48,244 nt of DNA from a virus, in UHGV virus genome UHGV-0308199; one strand, given 5' to 3'. Positions 519 through 28,531 of the stretch are shown in pieces. Under the pieces are notes generated by a model, which was given only the letters and a program-made list of their open reading frames with translations, was not told the DNA's origin and searched no databases. Positions within the stretch are counted from its first letter, which is position 1; every line of letters begins with the position of its first letter. A program made the translations under genes and the position numbers.

Positions 519-1379
519 ATGGTTGACAATGTTTTTAAGAAGAAATTGGCATCAATTAAGAACGAACATGTGTCGGTGTTAGATAGTTACAAAGTAAGAT
601 CATTTAAAGAGACTCATAGCGACACGGCCTGTATTGTGCGTATTATTGAAATATATTCACTGAATAAGCTGCGAGCTAAAGGTGAAAAGCTGTATTCACT
701 TACGGGGTTAACAGTACCTGATACGGAAACTGTGGCGAATGAGATCAACCTGCTCCTGAGCCGTTATGCCCAGTTGTGTCGTCAGGAAGAGGAAGAGTTA
801 TCTTTCCGGCAGCGTGAAGTGACAAATGCGGAAGTTGCATGGAAAAGCACATTCTCAAAAAACGGCGTCAGTAGCATTGCTGAAGCCAAAACGAATAAAA
901 TGGGGCATGCTGAACGAGCGGATGCTGAACGGTATTACCATCTGGCTGTTTCCCGGTTGAATGAACAACATAGTCGATTGAGCACGATCAAGCTTTTGCC
1001 GGGAGTACTGGCCGATGAAGGAAACTACATTGGGAAGGGAATCGATAAGCGTTTACTGAATATATTTCCTCAATCCGGCCAGATCCCTGCTGATTTTATT
1101 TCTGTATTTAATGACAGTGACGTTGTCCGTGATATTAAATTTATTACTGATGCACTCAAGTCTTTATCTGATTCCGTGAGTGAAATTATTAGTCGTTGTA
1201 GCGTTCCAACTGATCGTTATGTATTAAATAACGGTGGAATGGCAAGAGCTATGGCTTACAGGGAGTACTATCGAGCAGATAATTATGTATTACGTTCAGT
1301 CGTAAGTGACCGGGATTATGTTGAGCATGTAATGAAATACAATCTGGTTACTGAGTACAAAAATAAAATCTTTTCTTAA
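519..1379 (+). CDS. hypothetical protein upstream of capsid-like gene
   Basis: 286 aa ORF, co-oriented, 17 nt after alpA; no motif recognised. Confidence 0.5.
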   Translation: MVDNVFKKKLASIKNEHVSVLDSYKVRSFKETHSDTACIVRIIEIYSLNKLRAKGEKLYSLTGLTVPDTETVANEINLLLSRYAQLCRQEEEELSFRQREVTNAEVAWKSTFSKNGVSSIAEAKTNKMGHAERADAERYYHLAVSRLNEQHSRLSTIKLLPGVLADEGNYIGKGIDKRLLNIFPQSGQIPADFISVFNDSDVVRDIKFITDALKSLSDSVSEIISRCSVPTDRYVLNNGGMARAMAYREYYRADNYVLRSVVSDRDYVEHVMKYNLVTEYKNKIFS

Positions 1380-1401: not shown

Positions 1402-2406
1402 ATGTATGCCTTCAAAACTGAAAGGCCGGACGCAGCACGTCGTTATCATAATAAATTCGTCACTGGCACTAACTATCAGGAAGAATCAAACAGACGCTTT
1501 GCATTAAGCGAACCTACTGAAAATATACTGCGTACCTCAATTCTGGAATCCGGGTGGCTTATTAAAAATATTACCCTACGTGATGTTAACGCCGTGTCAG
1601 GTAATGCCGTCAATATTGGTGCCAGTGAACTGTATACCGGACGTGTGGATGGTGGCCGTTTCCACAAAAAAATGGCAATCAATGGTACGGAGTTCTTTCT
1701 GACAGAGACGGATACCTGCGCCCGGATCAGCTATTCCGATATGTCTCATATTTACCATACCGGCGTGCCGGATGAGTTTGAGAAAACGGTTGAGAGCTTT
1801 TTTGCCCAGGCATATGCGCTGGACATGCTGCGGGTCGGTTTCAACGGTGTGTCGATTGCAAATACTACAAACCCGGAAATCAATAAAAAAGGCGAGGATG
1901 TCAATATTGGCTGGCATGCACTGGCGAAAGCCTACGGGAACGGAAAGCAAATCATCTCTGAGCCTGTCACTCTGGGAGAGACTGGCACCTGGAAAAATAT
2001 TGATGCTCTGGCCAACCATCTGATTACAGAGCTTATTGCTGAGCAGTTTCGTGAAGATCCTCGTCTGGTTGTACTGGTTGGGGCAGAGCTGGCAGCACAT
2101 CAACGCCTGAAGTTATTTAATGCCGCAGACCGCCCGTCTGATGTGAATGCGGCACAGATGGCTACAAGTTCTGTTGCTGGCCGCTTTGCGTTTATTCCCC
2201 CGTTTATGCCGGGTAAGCGTCTGGCAGTAACGACGCTGGATAATCTGCATATTTACACTCAGGCGATAACACGCTGGTTTCGTGCTGAGTTTGATGATGA
2301 AAGCAGTGAATACGTGCATTCCTACCTGCGCAATGAAGGTTATGCACTCGGTGAACCTGAACTGTACGCGGCTGTTGATGAGTGCACCCTGACGTTTGCG
2401 GATTGA
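1402..2406 (+). CDS. P2-family major capsid protein (gpN)-like
   Basis: 334 aa; segments MLRVGFNGVS, DVNIGWHAL, EDPRLVVLVGAELAA, LDNLHIY fall in the same order as conserved blocks I recall from P2 gpN; from memory, not searched. Confidence 0.5.
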   Translation: MYAFKTERPDAARRYHNKFVTGTNYQEESNRRFALSEPTENILRTSILESGWLIKNITLRDVNAVSGNAVNIGASELYTGRVDGGRFHKKMAINGTEFFLTETDTCARISYSDMSHIYHTGVPDEFEKTVESFFAQAYALDMLRVGFNGVSIANTTNPEINKKGEDVNIGWHALAKAYGNGKQIISEPVTLGETGTWKNIDALANHLITELIAEQFREDPRLVVLVGAELAAHQRLKLFNAADRPSDVNAAQMATSSVAGRFAFIPPFMPGKRLAVTTLDNLHIYTQAITRWFRAEFDDESSEYVHSYLRNEGYALGEPELYAAVDECTLTFAD

Positions 2407-2446: not shown

Positions 2447-2544
2447 ACAGCATCAGGAAAAATGAAGAACTATTTTTAAGCAGAGGCTTAAGCATGCCAG
2501 CGTTAATTAATCCAGGCAATGATCAGTTTTCGGTTATAAATTTC

Positions 2545-2880
2545 TTGCCTCACCAGGAATGCGCGGGATATAGTTTAAAGGTTGCCGCAAAATCGGCAGC
2601 CGGGCGTAGGAACCCGTGTTATCTGAAGGCGATACTACACGCGCTAGGCGTGTTTTTTTGTGTCGCAGCTTTGACTCACCTAAAATTTATGGTGTGGTGG
2701 CTGATTGTATTTTTTTATTTTTTACGCCACATCATCAGAATTATGGTAGTCCAGGCGGGGCAGCTTTCGGGCTGGCCGGTATCCTTCAGAGCCGGTATTC
2801 CTACCCCCGTCTGGGCTACCACCCATGAGCGTAGGAACTCCGGTGGTAGCGTTACCCGCTATCTGAAGGAGGTTGCCATT
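2545..2880 (+). promoter_or_regulatory. structured leader: sigma70-like promoter (TTGCCT-18-TATAGT, 2545-2574), direct repeats GCGTAGGAAC...TATCTGAAGG (2604-2629 and 2829-2872) and an intrinsic terminator (2637-2660)
   Basis: Read directly; second repeat copy supplies GAAGGAGG RBS for the ATG at 2881; ORF-track ORF 2494..3084 is low-complexity over this stretch. Confidence 0.4.
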
Positions 2881-3084
2881 ATGGCTACAGTCCCTGCTTT
2901 ATCTCACCCTGAATTTACCTTTGTCTTTCTGGCTGTCCGCCGTACAGACCGTGATGCCCGTCCACGCCCTGTGCGTGTAATCGCAGAATGCGAGCATGCT
3001 GCACGCCTTAAACTTGCCACTGAATTTATCCTGAGCTTTGCTGCCCGTATCCCTGTGAAAAGAGCCGGGGAGGTGGTTGCATGA
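2881..3084 (+). CDS. small hypothetical protein (67 aa) downstream of the leader
   Basis: ATG at 2881 with GAAGGAGG RBS 9 nt upstream; in frame with 3' part of track ORF 2494..3084. Confidence 0.4.
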   Translation: MATVPALSHPEFTFVFLAVRRTDRDARPRPVRVIAECEHAARLKLATEFILSFAARIPVKRAGEVVA

Positions 3085-3317: not shown

Positions 3318-3720
3318 TAATCAAAATTTAAAGGCGCATGCTTTACGAACAGCAGTCTTACGCTACTACATTGCTGATGCATTCATTTCCTTAATGGTGC
3401 GTGTTCATAATGAACCTGTTTATATTGAAGATGGCGAACGAATAGAACTCTCCCACGAAAAAGTGGTGAGTAATATTATTTACCATATTGAAATGCCGTG
3501 GGTGAATGAGTTTGGGGCTGATGCTGGTTGCATACTGGCCGCAGAGAAACTGGAAAAAATGCTTAAACCAGGCTTTATGTCAGAAAATATTCGCCTGTCA
3601 GTTTTTGGTGTCACAGAGATGCGTGAGGTTTACCGGGATATTATTTTCGGAGCACCTGATGGCGAACTACCCGAAGGTTTTGAATTTGTGAAGCCGGAAG
3701 GTCAGGAGGTGCTGCTGTGA
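3310..3720 (+). CDS. hypothetical protein
   Basis: 136 aa; stop overlaps primase GTG start. Confidence 0.5.
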   Translation: MNNNQNLKAHALRTAVLRYYIADAFISLMVRVHNEPVYIEDGERIELSHEKVVSNIIYHIEMPWVNEFGADAGCILAAEKLEKMLKPGFMSENIRLSVFGVTEMREVYRDIIFGAPDGELPEGFEFVKPEGQEVLL

Positions 3721-6404
3721 AAACACCGTCTGTATCCACGATTTCCGGAGCTGCAATTGGGCGCTGGCCTTATATCCTGTCAGCATTAGGTATTAAAGTA
3801 CCGTCCGCAGGACATCATGGGGCTTGCCCTGCCTGTGGTGGAAAAGATCGTTTTCGACTGGACGATAAAGCGGGGCGAGGGACGTGGTTTTGTAATCAGT
3901 GCGGTCATGGCGATGGTCTTGATCTGGTTCGTCTGGTGACAGGAAGAAAGATAAAAGAAGTCGCCGGGATGGTATCTGAGGCGCTTGCATTACCAGAAAT
4001 ACAGGAGAAGCCCGCATTGCCAGCCAGGAAAAAGGCCGCAGGAAAAGAAGCGGGCGCGGAGCGATATACCAGACTCAGACAGCAGTCCTGCAATGGTGAG
4101 CCGGTCTATCTGACAAATAAGAGCTTACACGGGTATTCACTTCCCTTGCTGTCACAGCCTTTGAATCTGGCCGGAATAACATTTTCCACCGGTTCATTAC
4201 TGCTGCCTTTGACGGATATTTCCGGGAATATTACTGGTGGCCAGCTTATCAATCCTGACGGGGATAAAAGTCTGCTGCCCGGTAGCCAGCTGTCTGGCGC
4301 ATTCATTGCCCTGACCGATATACCCGCTGAAACACCTGAACAGGTGATTATCACTGAGGGTTTTGCCACGGCGCTTACCGTCAGTCTGCTGACTGAAGGA
4401 TGGATCGTGGCGGCTGTCGCTGCCACCAATTTACTGAAGGTGACGGAGCAGATCCGAAAACGCTGGCCGGAAACCCGGATCATTCTGGCCGGAGATAATG
4501 ATCTGGCTGACGGCAAAGAAAACACCGGGCGTATTCAGGCAGAGAAAGCCGCCAAAGCGGTGGATGGCTGGGTAACGCTCCCTCCGGTACGCCATAAGGC
4601 TGACTGGGATGATTATCGGCAGGAAGTGGGGAAAGAACGGGCGAGAGATGCCTTTCGTGAAGAAATGACGCTGCATGGCAAAGGGCAGACCCGTTTACCA
4701 GAAGGGTTCCGGCTGACAAAAGAATATTTGTGGTACGACAAGCTGGTTAATAAGTCTGATGGTGATACAGAGATACGTAATATCAAAATTTGCAGTCCGT
4801 TGCGGGTGACGGCAATCACCAGTGATGCTGATGGAAGTAATTACGGGCGTTTGCTGGAATGGGAAGATACCAACGGAAACAGCCGTAAATGGGCAATGCC
4901 GATGGAGATGCTGGGCGGTAGCGGGGAAGAACTGCGCCGCGTTCTGCTGGTTAACGGGCTTTCTTACATCAACATTAACGGCATGGCCAGAGCATTCCTG
5001 ATGGAATATATCTCGCTGTGTAAACCGGACAGAAAAGTAACCTGTGTGAATAAAACTGGCTGGCACGGCGGGGTTTACGTTCTCCAGGATGAAGTGATAG
5101 GGCGCGAAGCCCAGTCAGTCATCTTACAAACATCGAGTGTGCAGGGGCGTGATTTTCGTGTCAGCGGCACATCAGAGGGCTGGCGTGAAAATATAGGCCG
5201 TTATTGCATAAAGAATGCCCGTCTTGCCTTTGCGGTGAGTCTGGCATTTGCTGCCCCCCTTCTGAAACTGGTTGGTATCGGCGGTGGAGGTTATCACCTC
5301 AAAGGGGAATCCACAGACGGTAAAACCACGACGATGAAAGTGGCTGCATCAGTATGTGGTGGAACAGATTTCTGGCATACGTGGCGGGCGACGGGGAATG
5401 CCTTAGAAGGAACGGCGAGCCGCCGCAATGATGCCACGCTGATGCTGGATGAAATCCGGGAGGTTGACGGCAGGGAGGCGGGAAATATCGCTTATATGCT
5501 GGCTAACGGGCAGGGCAAAGCCAGAGCCAGAACAGATGGTTCGGTAAGGGAAACCAACCGCTGGAATCTGTTGTTTCTGTCTACCGGGGAACTGTCACTG
5601 GTAGAGCATGCGGCAAGCGCCGGGGAACGTACGTATGCCGGGGTTGAGGTCAGAATGATCCAGATCCCAAGCGATTCGGGCAAGTATGGCGTGTTTGAAG
5701 AACTTCATGGCTTCAGTAGCGGGAAAACCCTGGCTGAGCATCTTGAGCAGCACGTAGCGCATTATCATGGTGCACCATTCCGCGACTGGCTGTATTGCCT
5801 GACCGCTGATCTGCCGGAACTGACCAGTCAGGCGAAAGCCTTATTGAAAGAGTATACCCGAAGGCTGACGCCGGAAAATGCCGGGAATCAGGTTGGCCGG
5901 GCTGTTACCCGTTTTGCTCTGGTTGCGATGGCCGGGGAGCTGGCCACAAAAGCGGGCATCACAGGATGGCCGGAGGGAGAGGCCTTTCGTGCCGCTCAAA
6001 GCTGTCTGGCTGCATGGATGGCTGACCGGGGCCATACAGCTAATCAGGAAGATAAAGCGGCACTTGAACAGGTTCGGGACTTCATGACGCGTAATCAGTT
6101 CAGTCGGTTTGCTGACTGGAATGACGACAGGAACCGGCCTGTTTCAATGATGGGATTCAGAAAAGTCGATAAAGGAGACAACGTGACAGAGCCGGTTGTG
6201 ACGTTCTACGTTCTCCCGTCAGGCTGGAAGGAGATCTGTAAGGGATTTGACTCGCGTAAGGTGGCCAGGTTGTGTGTGGACGCGGGCTGGCTGAAACCCG
6301 GTGAAGATGGCCGGACGCAAAACAGCATTCGCCTGCCAGAAATAGGGCTTAAACGTGTGTACCAGTTCAATACACAGGTACTGGGAAGCGCTGAACCTGA
6401 GTGA
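3717..6404 (+). CDS. P4 alpha-type primase-helicase (zinc-binding, TOPRIM, P-loop NTPase)
   Basis: 895 aa; CPACGG...CNQCGH zinc motif, ITEG and AGDND TOPRIM motifs, Walker A GESTDGKTT; GTG start. Confidence 0.9.
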   Translation: MKTPSVSTISGAAIGRWPYILSALGIKVPSAGHHGACPACGGKDRFRLDDKAGRGTWFCNQCGHGDGLDLVRLVTGRKIKEVAGMVSEALALPEIQEKPALPARKKAAGKEAGAERYTRLRQQSCNGEPVYLTNKSLHGYSLPLLSQPLNLAGITFSTGSLLLPLTDISGNITGGQLINPDGDKSLLPGSQLSGAFIALTDIPAETPEQVIITEGFATALTVSLLTEGWIVAAVAATNLLKVTEQIRKRWPETRIILAGDNDLADGKENTGRIQAEKAAKAVDGWVTLPPVRHKADWDDYRQEVGKERARDAFREEMTLHGKGQTRLPEGFRLTKEYLWYDKLVNKSDGDTEIRNIKICSPLRVTAITSDADGSNYGRLLEWEDTNGNSRKWAMPMEMLGGSGEELRRVLLVNGLSYININGMARAFLMEYISLCKPDRKVTCVNKTGWHGGVYVLQDEVIGREAQSVILQTSSVQGRDFRVSGTSEGWRENIGRYCIKNARLAFAVSLAFAAPLLKLVGIGGGGYHLKGESTDGKTTTMKVAASVCGGTDFWHTWRATGNALEGTASRRNDATLMLDEIREVDGREAGNIAYMLANGQGKARARTDGSVRETNRWNLLFLSTGELSLVEHAASAGERTYAGVEVRMIQIPSDSGKYGVFEELHGFSSGKTLAEHLEQHVAHYHGAPFRDWLYCLTADLPELTSQAKALLKEYTRRLTPENAGNQVGRAVTRFALVAMAGELATKAGITGWPEGEAFRAAQSCLAAWMADRGHTANQEDKAALEQVRDFMTRNQFSRFADWNDDRNRPVSMMGFRKVDKGDNVTEPVVTFYVLPSGWKEICKGFDSRKVARLCVDAGWLKPGEDGRTQNSIRLPEIGLKRVYQFNTQVLGSAEPE

Positions 6405-6419
6405 TTATCGCGTGAGTCT

Positions 6420-6625
6420 TATTTTTATGAGGTAACACTGGTAACAGAGGTAACACCCGTTACTGATGCGGTTCTTCAGTGTTACCAGTCAAAAATACTG
6501 ACTGGTAACAGAGGTAACAAAAAATGGTGTGTTACCACGCGTTACCTCTTGATTTTGCTAACTGGTAACAGATTAAATCCTTTTAAATCAATAGCGTTAC
6601 ACGTGTTACCAGTGTTACACGTTCA
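6420..6625. repeat. iteron array, candidate replication origin
   Basis: At least 10 copies of GGTAACA / TGTTACC in both orientations within ~200 bp just after the primase gene. Confidence 0.7.
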
Positions 6626-6686
6626 GAACAAGAGGTAGGGATCCAAATCCCTTCTTCTGGCGGGCAACAGTATAGGGCACAGAACG

Positions 6687-6959
6687 ATGAAGATGATGAG
6701 AATGTACTGCCCCACATGTCAGGCAGTAGCACGGATAGGTAAAACAAACAGGAAACACCCACAACTGTACGATGTGTACTGCTATTGCTCTAATGTGGAG
6801 TGCGGTCACTCGTTTGTGATGAATGTTGCTTTCTCCCATTCCGTTAGTCCAAGCGCGCTGAACGGGCAGGGAAGGGTTAAAGAGCTGATTGATGCAATTC
6901 CACCCGAGGAACGGGAAAAGGCTTTAAAGTTGCTGCTGGCTGCGCAAAAGAATGGGTAA
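6687..6959 (+). CDS. ogr: Ogr/Delta-family zinc-finger late-gene activator
   Basis: 90 aa; CPTCQ...CYCSNVECGHSF C2-C2 zinc finger typical of P2 Ogr / P4 Delta. Confidence 0.8.
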   Translation: MKMMRMYCPTCQAVARIGKTNRKHPQLYDVYCYCSNVECGHSFVMNVAFSHSVSPSALNGQGRVKELIDAIPPEEREKALKLLLAAQKNG

Positions 6960-7638: not shown

Positions 7639-8520
7639 ATGAGTCATAATAAAAAGGAATATGCTAAATTTTTCCGTCGCCCCATTTTTTCATCCTTAGC
7701 AAAAGGTAAGGATATTTCGGATTTATTTGGGAGTTTTGATTCTTACTGCTATGAAACACTGTTTTCAAACAATGATAATAATGAACATGAGATTTCACTA
7801 AGGGATTTATTTACATCATTATATGATTTTTTGCGTCTGAATTATAGAAATGAATATGTTTATAAGACAGCACTTGTCAATAAAATAATATTCGGTAAGC
7901 ACAGCCCAAAAACAAGTTCGTCGTCCATAGAGTTACCAATTAAAAACTCTATAGTGGATGTTGCGGTGTTTAATGGTACGTCTACAGCTTACGAGATTAA
8001 GACAGAGTATGATTCACCAAAAAGGTTGATTACTCAAGCCCCTGATTATTTGGATGTTTTTGATAAAGTGTATATAGTTACACATCCAGAGTATGCAAGT
8101 AAATATTGTGCTTTAAATCTCCCCAGAGTGGGAGTTATGGTTTTGAATAAAAAAGATCAATTGAGTGTCATTAAGGAGGCAGATTCAAATATTGATTATA
8201 TTAAAAGTGACAGCTTGTTTTCAGTTCTTAGAAAGGAAGAGTTCTTAGCTATAATAGAAGATTACACTTCAACTAAAATAAATATGCCTAACGGATTGGT
8301 TTATGAATATTGTAAAGAGATATTCATGCAGATGCCATTAAACATAGCAAATAAATACTTTATCTCTGCTATGAAAAAAAGATGTAACGATAAAGTTTTT
8401 TTGGATTATATTTATTCTCTTCCAGCATGTTTACGTGTTTTAGGTTATGCAACACCATTATCAAGAAAGCAAAAAGAATTCATCATGAATTTGATGGATG
8501 TAAAAATTAAAATTTGTTGA
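7639..8520 (+). CDS. cargo protein A, predicted PD-(D/E)xK-fold nuclease-like (candidate defense component)
   Basis: 293 aa; ~30-33% GC by eye; IVDVAVFNGTSTAYEIKTE gives D-x12-E-x-K signature. Confidence 0.7.
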   Translation: MSHNKKEYAKFFRRPIFSSLAKGKDISDLFGSFDSYCYETLFSNNDNNEHEISLRDLFTSLYDFLRLNYRNEYVYKTALVNKIIFGKHSPKTSSSSIELPIKNSIVDVAVFNGTSTAYEIKTEYDSPKRLITQAPDYLDVFDKVYIVTHPEYASKYCALNLPRVGVMVLNKKDQLSVIKEADSNIDYIKSDSLFSVLRKEEFLAIIEDYTSTKINMPNGLVYEYCKEIFMQMPLNIANKYFISAMKKRCNDKVFLDYIYSLPACLRVLGYATPLSRKQKEFIMNLMDVKIKIC

Positions 8521-8541
8521 TATCCTCAGGAGTTGTAAGTT

Positions 8542-9492
8542 ATGTATAGCCCATATTTGTATGCGAGAAGTACAGAGTTATTATGCCTTAGGGACCTCGT
8601 TGCGAAGGGAGTTAGCCTAAATGGTCTGCTACCAATTTTAGAACCAATTAACGTCAATACGAGAAATTTATTAACATGTTTAAATGTTTGGAATTCTGAC
8701 ATAATTGTTATCCTTAATCCTTATCAGGAAGATTTTTCTTCACACAATAACGTCTTAACTTTAAATCAAAATTTATCAAGTGTATTAACAAATAAAAATA
8801 ATATCATCTCTGGATATCTTATTCAGCCCAATACAACGATTAATGATATTAATAATTGGTTGAATGCTAACTTAAATAGACGAGTTGCACTTCTATATGA
8901 TAATCCATCATTATCCAACTCTGATATTCAGTTGTTGGCGACAAATCAATTGATTAGTTATCATGTTGTTTTAAATAATAAAATGCTTCCTAATCAGTGC
9001 GCTCTTCTTCCTTTGTCGAAGTTAATTATTATTAGCGATAACTTTAGAAAGTTAGCAAAAAATGCTGATTATAATGGGCCGGAACTTTTCACGCACGCAC
9101 ATCAATTCGTGGGACAAAATTACTTAGGATTTGGCGATTATACAATTACTGGCCAGGTACTAGATCTTGGAGGTGGTCAACCTTCTGCTGTTGCCGCACA
9201 TTTGGTGTTCAAGAATTTACAAGCGAATACAGTTTGGATTCGTCATTTTGTATCAAGCAACACGCAACGAGGAAGTTCAAATGTTACTGCAAAATTTTTA
9301 GATGTTTCAGATCAAATTACAAATCTTGTTCCCCAACATCCAACCCAGTTTGGCAGCAACATTGGTCTTAACTATTATTATTACAATAGTCAACCAACTG
9401 TAAGGCATTTCCCTGGGTTGCCAAAAAACAAACAGTATCAAATTACTCACCATATTTGTTTCATGCTGGATTTAATAGCAGGTCGTATTTAA
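8542..9492 (+). CDS. cargo protein B, unknown function (candidate defense component)
   Basis: 316 aa, N/L/Q-rich, ~28% GC; AGGAG RBS; 21-nt gap from gene A; 3' end overlaps convergent int by 21 nt; no Walker A/B seen. Confidence 0.7.
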   Translation: MYSPYLYARSTELLCLRDLVAKGVSLNGLLPILEPINVNTRNLLTCLNVWNSDIIVILNPYQEDFSSHNNVLTLNQNLSSVLTNKNNIISGYLIQPNTTINDINNWLNANLNRRVALLYDNPSLSNSDIQLLATNQLISYHVVLNNKMLPNQCALLPLSKLIIISDNFRKLAKNADYNGPELFTHAHQFVGQNYLGFGDYTITGQVLDLGGGQPSAVAAHLVFKNLQANTVWIRHFVSSNTQRGSSNVTAKFLDVSDQITNLVPQHPTQFGSNIGLNYYYYNSQPTVRHFPGLPKNKQYQITHHICFMLDLIAGRI

Positions 9493-10647
9493 TAAGCTAG
9501 CGTACCATTCCATCATTACTTGTCGATCTTTAATATATTGCGCATGATTGTAAGTACCTCGAATAGAGTTCTTATCAACATGCGCAAGCTGCATTTCAAT
9601 CCAGGCACTTTCAAACCCATGCTCATGCAAGATGGTGCTCATGGTATGCCTGAAACCGTGACCCGTTAACCGACCGTGATAACCCAGTAGTTTTATCACT
9701 TTGTTGATGCTGGCTTCGCTCATTGGTTTACTGACGTCATTCCGGCCAGGGAAAACGAGGCTGTAATTCCCTGTTATTTCTTGCAGCTTTTTCAGGATAT
9801 TGATCGCCTGAGTTGATAACGGAACCAGATGGGGGCGGCGTTTCTTCATCCGTTCTTTGGGGATCTCCCATAAGGCATTATCTAAATCAAACTCAGCCCA
9901 TTCCGCTGCACGTAGTTCAATTGTTCGCACGCCTGTTAGCATCAACAGCTGCGTGGCGTATTTGGTAACTAAACTGCCCTGATAGTTATCCAGAGCATTA
10001 ACGAACTCGGGCAACTCGCTTTCAGTCAGGAACGGGAAGTGTTGGGTTTTAGGTTTGTTGAGTGCGATAGCTAAATCGGGTGCAAAATTATACTTTGCTC
10101 TACCAGTGGCAACAGCATAACGAAGCACTTCACCACAGCGGCGGCGGATCTTACTGGTTTGCTCTAGCGCACCTCTTTTCTCTATTTTTTGCAGGACGGT
10201 TAGCAGTTCTAATGGTTCAATCTGCTCAATTGGGCGCTGGCCGATAAAAGGAAAAATATCCTTTTCCATACAATTGAGAACCTCTTTTGCATAACCCTCT
10301 GACCAGGTGGCTTTTTTCGATGAGTGCCATTCTCTGGCCACAGACTCAAAGCTGTTCTCATGCGCGAACTGCAAAGCAATCTTATCTGCTTTTCTGGCTT
10401 CACTTGGGTTTATCCCGTTGGCTAACATCGAACGCGCTTCATCACGTTTGGTACGTGCCTGTGCCAACGACACATCGCCATATACGCCAAAGGAAATCAT
10501 CTTAGGCTTACCTGCAAAGCGATAGCGAAAACGCCAGCCTTTACTGCCCGCTGTGTCGATCAGGAGTGATAGCCCCATACCATCGTTAAGCGTATAGGGT
10601 TTGTCCTTCGGTTTTGCTCTTTTTATTTGGATGTCAGATAGCAGCAT
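9472..10647 (-). CDS. int: tyrosine integrase, P4/CP4-57 family
   Basis: N-terminus LSDIQIKRAKPKDKPYTLNDGMGLSLLI...WRFRYRF (arm-binding type); C-terminus HGFRHT...LAH...GTYNHAQY catalytic motifs; start taken at internal Met (10647). Confidence 0.9.
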   Translation of the reverse strand: MLLSDIQIKRAKPKDKPYTLNDGMGLSLLIDTAGSKGWRFRYRFAGKPKMISFGVYGDVSLAQARTKRDEARSMLANGINPSEARKADKIALQFAHENSFESVAREWHSSKKATWSEGYAKEVLNCMEKDIFPFIGQRPIEQIEPLELLTVLQKIEKRGALEQTSKIRRRCGEVLRYAVATGRAKYNFAPDLAIALNKPKTQHFPFLTESELPEFVNALDNYQGSLVTKYATQLLMLTGVRTIELRAAEWAEFDLDNALWEIPKERMKKRRPHLVPLSTQAINILKKLQEITGNYSLVFPGRNDVSKPMSEASINKVIKLLGYHGRLTGHGFRHTMSTILHEHGFESAWIEMQLAHVDKNSIRGTYNHAQYIKDRQVMMEWYASLLNTTCY

Positions 10648-28375: not shown

Positions 28376-28450
28376 GGGTCAGTCGTATAAAGGTCATTAC
28401 GGAAGGCTGTTAACCTTCTTATCGTGGTTCGAGTCCACGCTGTCCCGCCA
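28376..28450 (+). tRNA. tRNA, anticodon GUU (Asn) by manual fold
   Basis: Cloverleaf: acceptor 6/7 bp, anticodon stem GAAGG/CCTTC, loop CTGTTAA, T-arm CGTGG-TTCGAGT-CCACG, encoded CCA. Confidence 0.55.
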
Positions 28451-28455
28451 AATAT

Positions 28456-28531
28456 GCTGGTTTAGCTCCAATGGTAGAGCAGTCGCCTTGTAAGCGAATG
28501 GGTAGCGGTTCAAGTCCGTTAACCAGCACCA
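28456..28531 (+). tRNA. tRNA, anticodon UGU (Thr) by manual fold
   Basis: Acceptor GCTGGTT/AACCAGC 7/7, D-arm GCTC-CAATGGTA-GAGC, anticodon loop CTTGTAA, T-arm AGCGG-TTCAAGT-CCGTT, encoded CCA. Confidence 0.65.

Follow-up and report, generated by a model that had tools for sequence, protein, structure and literature searches.

A predicted replication origin formed by a dyad-symmetric iteron array directly downstream of a chimeric primase-helicase gene in a P4-like/PICI-like satellite island

RESULTS AND DISCUSSION

Genomic context of the array

The window, i.e., the whole stretch of 48,244 nucleotides that was analyzed, contains a P4-like satellite island of ~10.8 kb that is located at tRNA-Arg, and the repeat array described here is part of this island. 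The gene order starts with an HTH regulator, a 286-amino-acid open reading frame (ORF), a P2-family major capsid gene, an Ash/Icd-like gene, and two small ORFs and continues with the primase-helicase gene, the array, an Ogr/Delta zinc-finger gene, a sce7726/sce7725 pair, and, on the opposite strand, a tyrosine integrase gene. The integrase gene and the att site lie 3 to 4 kb from the array, at the island end. The features needed below are as follows.

519-1379 (+): 286-amino-acid ORF
1402-2406 (+): P2-family major capsid gene (Pfam, E = 9.5e-67)
2581-2658 and 2739-2826 (+): Rfam matches isrK and C4, inside the Ash/Icd-like ORF (2494-3084)
3717-6404 (+): gene for the primase-helicase-initiator (Pri-Rep), 895 amino acids (Pfam, PHROG)
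6431-6619 (no strand): iteron array, the predicted origin
7639-9492 (+): sce7726/sce7725-family pair, 30 to 36% GC, between Ogr/Delta and the integrase

P4-like satellite traits of the island are the integrase, Ogr/Delta, an alpha-like primase domain, the C4/isrK RNAs, and a homolog of cII, which in P4 is annotated in the sce7726 family (PADLOC match 'cll'); a P2-family capsid gene is also present. No Psu, Sid, or Epsilon was found among the scanned ORFs. The isrK (68.9 bits) and C4 antisense RNA (81.1 bits) matches in the Ash/Icd-like ORF are both above the Rfam gathering score; they represent P4-type CI-RNA immunity, so the island regulates itself like P4. The 286-amino-acid ORF has no family match in Pfam, PHROGs, NCBIfam, or PADLOC and possibly encodes a scaffold or size determinant, and the sce7726/sce7725 pair is probably a P4-type defense/accessory hotspot.

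In Escherichia coli SK1144, the island is located between dsdC and tRNA-Arg/yfdC. From position ~10794 on, the window continues as an HK620/Sf6/Kapi1-like (P22-like) prophage, whose attP/excisionase region adjoins the island integrase, and in SK1144 a tRNA-Arg is found at the position where the prophage starts in the window. Satellite and prophage thus seem to have integrated at argW one behind the other. The neighboring prophage carries genes for tRNA-Asn and tRNA-Thr (28376-28531, + strand). The P2/P4 cos site (GGCGAGGCGGGGAAAGCAC, up to three mismatches) is absent from the whole window, despite the P2-family capsid and Ogr/Delta genes, and there is no terminase gene in the island. Identity with the PICI EcCIMP1, whose helper Kapi1 resembles the neighboring prophage, was considered and rejected: EcCIMP1 is located at proA-yagU and has no capsid gene.

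Pri-Rep is a chimeric initiator

Pri-Rep harbors a Zn-ribbon (amino acids 33 to 68), a Toprim domain (210 to 307), and a DUF927 helicase domain (331 to 614), followed, according to a structural model, by a C-terminal helical bundle and a winged helix (~646 to 885). The corresponding family matches are Zn_Ribbon_Prim, Toprim_3, and DUF927, along with PHROG 1139 ('DNA primase'); a partial NCBIfam match to Cch1 reached 59 bits, far under the family cutoff of 700. In BLASTP comparisons, residues 1 to 317 show 38% identity to the primase domain of P4 alpha, and the remainder of the protein has no similarity to it. Residues 418 to 648 match SaPIbov1 Rep (PDB 8tch) and the SCCmec helicase Cch (PDB 5dgk) by sequence, with an E value of 1.5e-13 to SaPI Rep.

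The C-terminal 245 amino acids had no match at E ≤ 10 when the PDB was searched by sequence. An AlphaFold2 model of the last 250 residues was obtained with a mean pLDDT of 79.8 (~90 over the last 100 residues), and Foldseek searches with it returned 8tch (E = 2.6e-5, probability 1.0) and 5dgk. The best structural matches of the modeled C-terminal part (residues 646 to 895) are SaPIbov1 Rep, Cch, and a wHTH-oriT complex; sequence identity between the C-terminal domain and SaPI Rep is ~15%. The modeled winged helix contains helices at residues 834 to 841 and 846 to 855 and the strands of a beta-hairpin at residues 869 to 873 and 877 to 884, which gives the following predicted elements.

6108-6371 (+): predicted winged-helix DNA-binding domain, amino acids 798 to 885 (confident model)
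6252-6281 (+): recognition helix, amino acids 846 to 855 (model)
6312-6368 (+): wing, amino acids 866 to 884, with the specificity-linked residues 866, 870, 878, and 880 (model)

Homology of this C-terminal domain to the origin-binding domain of P4 alpha was tried and rejected, with BLASTP, PDB sequence, and fold searches all null and an hhalign probability of 0.05. The label "alpha-type", which an earlier note on this DNA had given to the whole protein, hence fits the primase domain (38% identity) and fails for the DUF927 helicase and the C-terminal binding domain, both of which are SaPI-Rep-like. Pri-Rep is a natural chimera of a P4-alpha-type primase with a SaPI-Rep-type helicase and predicted origin binder.

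A symmetric array of 12 iterons follows the Pri-Rep gene

The array begins 27 bp past the Pri-Rep stop codon at 6404 and thus, as had been noticed before, directly follows the primase gene. The exact heptamer GGTAACA/TGTTACC occurs nine times within 6431-6610, with six copies on the + strand and three on the - strand, in keeping with the two orientations described earlier. The initial count of at least 10 heptamers in ~200 bp exceeds the number of strict heptamers by one and holds for the hexamers GGTAAC and GTAACA (10 each in the array). In the window as a whole, the heptamer is found 16 times versus 3.56 ± 1.81 times in dinucleotide-preserving shuffled controls, and none of 100 shuffles reached 16. 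The GTAAC core is present 13 times in 190 bp, where 0.27 occurrences would be expected from the rest of the window (Poisson P, ~5e-18).

Together with three one-base variants, the nine exact copies make up 12 conserved 7-bp sites in 6431-6619. Neighboring iterons are spaced at a 9-bp pitch, which Tandem Repeats Finder detects in the first three copies. The sites are arranged with two-fold symmetry: the midpoints of the six mirror pairs fall on 6525.0 five times and on 6524.5 once. The array is composed of the following elements.

6431-6619 (no strand): complete array, 12 sites in the order >>><>><<><<<, two-fold symmetry about 6525
6431-6519 (+): left half-origin with six GGTAACA sites, at 6431-6437 (+), 6440-6446 (+), 6449-6455 (+), 6480-6486 (-), 6504-6510 (+), and 6513-6519 (+)
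6530-6619 (-): right half-origin, mirror of the left, with the six sites of the next two lines, each read on its own strand
Sites 7 to 9: 6530-6536 (-) GGTAACA, 6540-6546 (-) GGTAACG, 6564-6570 (+) GGTAACA
Sites 10 to 12: 6595-6601 (-) TGTAACG, 6604-6610 (-) GGTAACA, 6613-6619 (-) TGTAACA
6520-6529 (no strand): central spacer AAAAATGGTG, which holds the dyad axis, 70% AT
6487-6503 (no strand): 17-bp spacer between sites 4 and 5, 71% AT
6547-6563 (no strand): mirror 17-bp spacer between sites 8 and 9, 71% AT
6571-6594 (no strand): spacer between sites 9 and 10, the most AT-rich one (79% AT; best 20-mer, 85%) and a candidate unwinding element
6458-6464 (-): additional, degenerate site CGTTACT (- strand, AGTAACG), not kept by relatives and probably without function

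The spacer at 6487-6503 forms, with its flanking sites, the palindrome TGTTACCAGTCA-N7-TGACTGGTAACA, and the TTTTAAATCAA block in 6571-6594 is partly conserved. No Rfam family overlaps the array, and neither a DnaA box (up to one mismatch) nor an IHF consensus was detected in 6380-6700. An iteron-plasmid oriV of the RepA/TrfA/Pi type, with direct iterons of 17 to 22 bp, DnaA boxes, and an adjacent DUE, was rejected as a match, as the sites here are 7 bp long, occur in both orientations, and are accompanied by no DnaA box.

The layout of the array is conserved, while its core sequence changes

Of 5,426 complete E. coli genomes, 449 (~8%) carry the repeat region, and 421 of these 449 copies are at least 99% identical. 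A scan with one genome per species identified 55 related loci in the Enterobacterales, with primases of 60 to 92% identity. The earlier note had made its interpretation dependent on such repeats being present in related elements; a dense repeat array indeed lies in the 300 bp past the primase stop codon in ~44 of 50 usable loci, usually with 8 to 12 copies of one core. In L038, L044, and L055, the array is located ~1.1 kb downstream, past an inserted integrase-like ORF. These three loci (~8670-9800) belong to a clade of ~60% identity, the N terminus of the inserted ORF reads MAIKKLDDGRYEVD..., and the arrays have GTGGGA/GGGAAC-type cores. Among the 55 loci, nearly every complete one retains an array behind the primase gene.

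The loci inspected share a layout of three direct, one inverted, two direct, two inverted, one direct, and three inverted sites with matching spacers; site order, orientation, and spacing were confirmed as identical in the displayed loci, and for five relatives the agreement is exact at the level of single base pairs. The exact dyad symmetry was found in L016, L021, L010, L008, and L049, which represent four iteron classes, and L035 shows a somewhat different site pattern. By lineage, the core sequence is GGTAACA, GGGTAACA, GGTGTAACA, GGTGGAACA, GGTTACA/GGTGACA, GGATACA, or of the TACATGTA type, and the iteron unit, 7 bp here, extends to 8 to 9 bp in some lineages. In the alignment, the G..ACA/TGT..C columns are invariant at every site, and the inner bases switch in concert. 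The array goes with the primase gene and not with Ogr/Delta, which is missing downstream in many loci.

It could be argued that the repeats are functionless, due to chance or in the course of decay, and the small repeat unit is the sole point in favor of this. We give this explanation next to no weight, given the Poisson P of ~5e-18, the 421 of 449 E. coli copies with at least 99% identity, and a layout that is kept at the base-pair level across genera with the cores changing in concert. Chance as the source of the array is excluded.

Two records deserve mention. In L008 (8685-8985; Pectobacterium polonicum), GGATACA, GGTTACA, and GGTGACA cores are mixed in one array, whereas close relatives have a single core each (GGTAACA in L021, GGATACA in L009); the mixed array may represent an intermediate or relaxed-specificity state in an iteron switch. 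L007 (NZ_JBQPOM010000063.1), labeled Vagococcus sp. WN89Y, encodes a primase with 81% identity and carries a GGTAACA array in an Enterobacterales-type island, so that this Firmicute-labeled record is likely due to assembly contamination or mislabeling.

Iteron sequence covaries with the winged helix of Pri-Rep

Changes of the iteron core track substitutions in the last ~50 residues of Pri-Rep. The primases of L021, L008, and L009 are 95 to 98% identical and the flanks of their arrays almost identical, yet all iterons differ. Between L021 and L008, 7 of 16 substitutions fall in residues 854 to 880 (0.5 expected; P, ~3e-7), and between L021 and L009 the same stretch holds 10 of 41 (1.3 expected; P, ~4e-7). 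Enrichment is weaker in the pairs L010/L014 and L017/L019 (P, ~0.01 to 0.02). As the sequences are phylogenetically related, these comparisons amount to perhaps four to six independent switch events, two of them at P of ~0.01 to 0.02. A pooled pairwise substitution analysis was dropped in favor of independent switch events and a column-wise class test because a single clade comparison and the overall divergence of the N terminus dominated it.

In the column-wise test, residue 866 was the sole one of 895 alignment columns to split 7-mer iterons (Arg in 22 of 22) from 8/9-mer iterons (Lys in 17 of 17), and Lys866 is found in no fewer than three clades. At residue 880, the xTAACA and GGAACA classes have R or K, and W or F goes with the cores GGTTACA and GGATACA, those of the TACATGTA type, and those of the L038/L044 group. 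The specificity-linked residues map onto the modeled recognition helix and wing. Recognition of the iterons by the winged helix would be expected to leave such covariation. As a side observation, the L021 primase (Pectobacterium carotovorum) has a 33-residue in-frame gap at amino acids 396 to 428 (window numbering) compared with all other homologs, which could be a deletion or an assembly artifact; this copy is perhaps inactive.

The L021, L008, and L009 loci are mosaic and differ in other island proteins too, so that whole-locus comparison alone cannot exclude these proteins as partners of the array. We considered that the repeats might be sites for a different protein, namely the Ogr/Delta activator, the integrase (as arm sites), or a helper terminase (pac/cos). 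Ogr/Delta sites in the late promoters of P2 and P4 are TGT-N12-ACA dyads; the iterons start or end with TGT/ACA, and Ogr/Delta is the next gene. Ogr/Delta was nevertheless rejected as the array-binding protein, with many array loci lacking it downstream and with Ogr zinc-finger regions that are identical in L021 and L008, where the iterons are different. For the integrase, the distance of 3 to 4 kb to the gene and the att site at the island end argues against arm sites, and for a terminase, the island has no such gene and no P2-type cos was found. With the covariation pointing to the primase winged helix, recognition by any of these other proteins is highly improbable.

Comparison with known replication origins

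The closest parallels are found in staphylococcal pathogenicity islands. SaPI origins consist of 6 to 12 iterons right downstream of rep, in opposite orientations and flanking AT-rich DNA, and are bound by a winged helix (PMC9371898); SaPI Rep is a self-loading initiator-helicase whose DNA binding and melting are ATP independent (PMC9371898). The island studied here shares with SaPIs (SaPIbov1 Rep, PDB 8tch; SaPI1 Rep1; SaPI5 PriRep5) a homologous helicase and an array 3' of its gene, and the fusion of primase and Rep resembles PriRep5. Three hallmarks of a SaPI/PICI-type origin are present: an array 3' of the initiator gene, two opposite site sets around AT-rich DNA (70 to 79%), and, by sequence and modeled fold, a Rep-type (DUF927) helicase with a C-terminal winged helix. 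Differences are the Gram-negative host, units of 7 bp (8 to 9 bp in some lineages) instead of 5 to 6 bp, and 12 sites with base-pair-exact two-fold symmetry, and perhaps also the primase domain, which Pfam assigns to the Zn-ribbon/Toprim type that P4 alpha has. The SCCmec self-loading helicases Cch/Cch2 (PDB 5dgk) likewise have the fold of helicase and C-terminal domain in common with Pri-Rep.

In the E. coli island EcCICFT073, an array 3' of pri-rep is experimentally required for plasmid replication (Fillol-Salom et al. 2018, PMC6092414). For this island and for SaPIs, the literature shows that pri-rep and ori together support autonomous replication, which is lost when ori is deleted. Both are E. 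coli satellite islands with iterons flanking AT-rich DNA directly 3' of pri-rep; in EcCICFT073, the array is visible at L059 13997-14284, with the iterons GGTAGAC/GTCTACC. In contrast, its initiator (L059 12242-13996) is composed of D5_N, DUF5906, and Pox_D5 without Toprim or DUF927 and shows no significant similarity to the window Pri-Rep. The P4-type CI RNA, Ogr/Delta, and the far-end integrase on the opposite strand further set the present island apart. DUF927-type 'primases' with an ori downstream of pri have been acknowledged in GN-PICIs (PMC10111431).

Similarity to P4 goes beyond the homologous primase domains (38% over 317 amino acids), the P4-type CI RNA, the Ogr/Delta-family gene, and the cII (sce7726) homolog. 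The iterons are nearly identical, with a single-base difference between P4 GGTGAACA and GGTAACA here (GGTGGAACA/GGTGTAACA in relatives), the pitch is 9 to 10 bp in both, the six type-1 repeats of P4 ori are ordered >>><>> like each half of the array, and crr likewise lies directly 3' of the alpha gene. However, alpha consists of Zn-ribbon, Toprim, D5_N, DUF5906, and Pox_D5 with a D5-type SF3 helicase, the P4 type-1 repeat is an octamer (TGTTCACC) and the unit here one base shorter (TGTTACC), and P4 has ori and crr as two separate elements, where the island has one dyad-symmetric array. The array thus differs from P4 ori/crr in repeat length, in an initiator of which only the primase part matches alpha, and in the lack of two distant cis elements; GTGAAC cores are not found in it. 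The P4-like iteron sequence is notable, with binding domains that have no detected relation.

Mirror-image short initiator sites around an AT-rich region are also known from the origins of SV40 large T antigen and papillomavirus E1, where the initiator is the helicase and is loaded as double hexamers. This likeness is an analogy between unrelated proteins and hosts, and a double hexamer for Pri-Rep is a proposal.

The array as a probable replication origin and possible alternatives

A SaPI/PICI-type origin is the best reading of the array. We estimate at roughly 80% the probability that it is the vegetative replication origin of the ~10.8-kb P4-like/PICI-like island and is read by the C-terminal tail of the upstream Pri-Rep. 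The array follows the gene across the Enterobacterales, whatever lies downstream, its iterons covary with the C-terminal winged helix, and the fold of this domain resembles that of the domain with which SaPI Rep binds its origin. These findings bear out the position and architecture that the earlier note had expected for an origin bound by the adjacent primase-helicase, with the function itself read from them.

P4 crr is a required cis element and not the start site. Position alone is therefore no proof of an ori, because crr sits in the same place, directly 3' of alpha, without being one. By analogy, the array could be an auxiliary element that is bound by the initiator and needed for replication that starts elsewhere; P4 crr has type-1 repeats at a 9-bp pitch with ori 4.5 kb away, and the primase domain of Pri-Rep is alpha-like. 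We regard this arrangement as unlikely. No second array was found in the island by the same scan that recovers both P4 arrays (ori and crr), the single array holds two mirror halves that each have the orientation pattern of P4 ori, and helicase and binding domain are SaPI-Rep-like, a family whose origin is the array located 3' of rep.

Iteron-binding plasmid initiators commonly also have regulatory roles (e.g., PMC4980987). A mainly regulatory or copy-control function, as operator or roadblock for read-through into Ogr/Delta or through 'handcuffing', would fit the location of the array, which follows the primase operon and precedes the next gene, and the lack of a terminator before it. The downstream gene varies by lineage, though, and the array layout does not, and dyad symmetry combined with AT-rich spacers is typical of helicase-loading origins. 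A mainly regulatory array is hence very unlikely, and a regulatory role would most plausibly be added to the origin function and not take its place.

Proposed mechanism

Under the origin reading, Pri-Rep would combine three functions in one polypeptide: a DnaG/P4-alpha-type primase, a hexameric helicase of the DUF927 type (SaPI-Rep/Cch, MCM-like), and a winged-helix origin binder. After induction, the winged helix would bind the 7-bp iterons via its recognition helix (amino acids 846 to 855) and wing (amino acids 866 to 884), and the two mirror sets of six sites would seed the assembly of two helicase rings, facing each other head to head, within the 189-bp region. The AT-rich spacers would then melt, the rings would unwind outward, and the N-terminal primase would supply the host polymerase with primers. 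From the layout and the related systems, we infer DNA binding and melting, the loading of a double hexamer in which each subunit takes one iteron, and replication in both directions.

A more far-reaching version, which we offer as a speculation that is doubtful as it stands, treats the origin as a built-in template for a double hexamer. The six iterons (>>><>>) of each half would take up one winged helix each and set register and head-to-head orientation of the rings, P4 ori would be 'half an origin', and R866 versus K866 along with residue 880 would set the preference for iteron length and sequence. If true, the half-origin nature of P4 ori would explain why P4 needs crr, with both halves fused in the lineage studied here, and residues 866 and 880 would form a simple recognition code that can evolve and that makes co-resident satellites incompatible. 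The phrase 'six iterons for six subunits' is numerology until tested.

The kind of element is already known from SaPI and PICI origins and from P4 ori/crr, and the array is unusually regular among them. No description of this origin, its iterons, or its initiator subfamily was found in the literature. New here are the chimeric initiator, the exact 2×6 dyad layout, and the natural specificity switches that point to wing residues 866 and 880. The array provides a concrete origin candidate for a satellite family widespread in the Enterobacterales, whose primase cluster comprises thousands of member sequences, and the chimeric initiator forms a bridge between the replication modules of the two satellite families that have been studied most. 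The natural switches, with near-identical proteins and flanks and all 12 sites changed, offer material on initiator-origin diversification and on avoidance of cross talk between co-resident satellites, and the 2×6 layout lends itself well to structural studies of how self-loading helicases assemble. The picture of satellite replication is refined by this and not changed.

Sequences flanking the array

Three further elements flank the array.

6637-6652 (no strand): palindrome AGGGAT-CCAA-ATCCCT, not conserved, at best a weak terminator-like hairpin
6418-6422 (no strand): CTTAT as part of GTCTTATTTTT, 8 bp 5' of the first iteron, invariant columns in a 13-lineage alignment
6657-6665 (no strand): CTGGCGGGC (CTGGnnGGC across lineages), downstream of the array, invariant columns in the same alignment

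The palindrome had been reported before at ~6644-6660; it exists, ~7 bp to the left of that position. Its membership in the origin element found no support, with the palindrome not kept in relatives and shuffled sequences giving as much. A role as conserved terminator was rejected as well (one terminator-like match versus a shuffled mean of 0.7). CTTAT and CTGGCGGGC, on the other hand, are invariant in all 13 aligned lineages, whatever the iteron class or downstream gene, and are candidates for a priming/start signal or a host-factor site.
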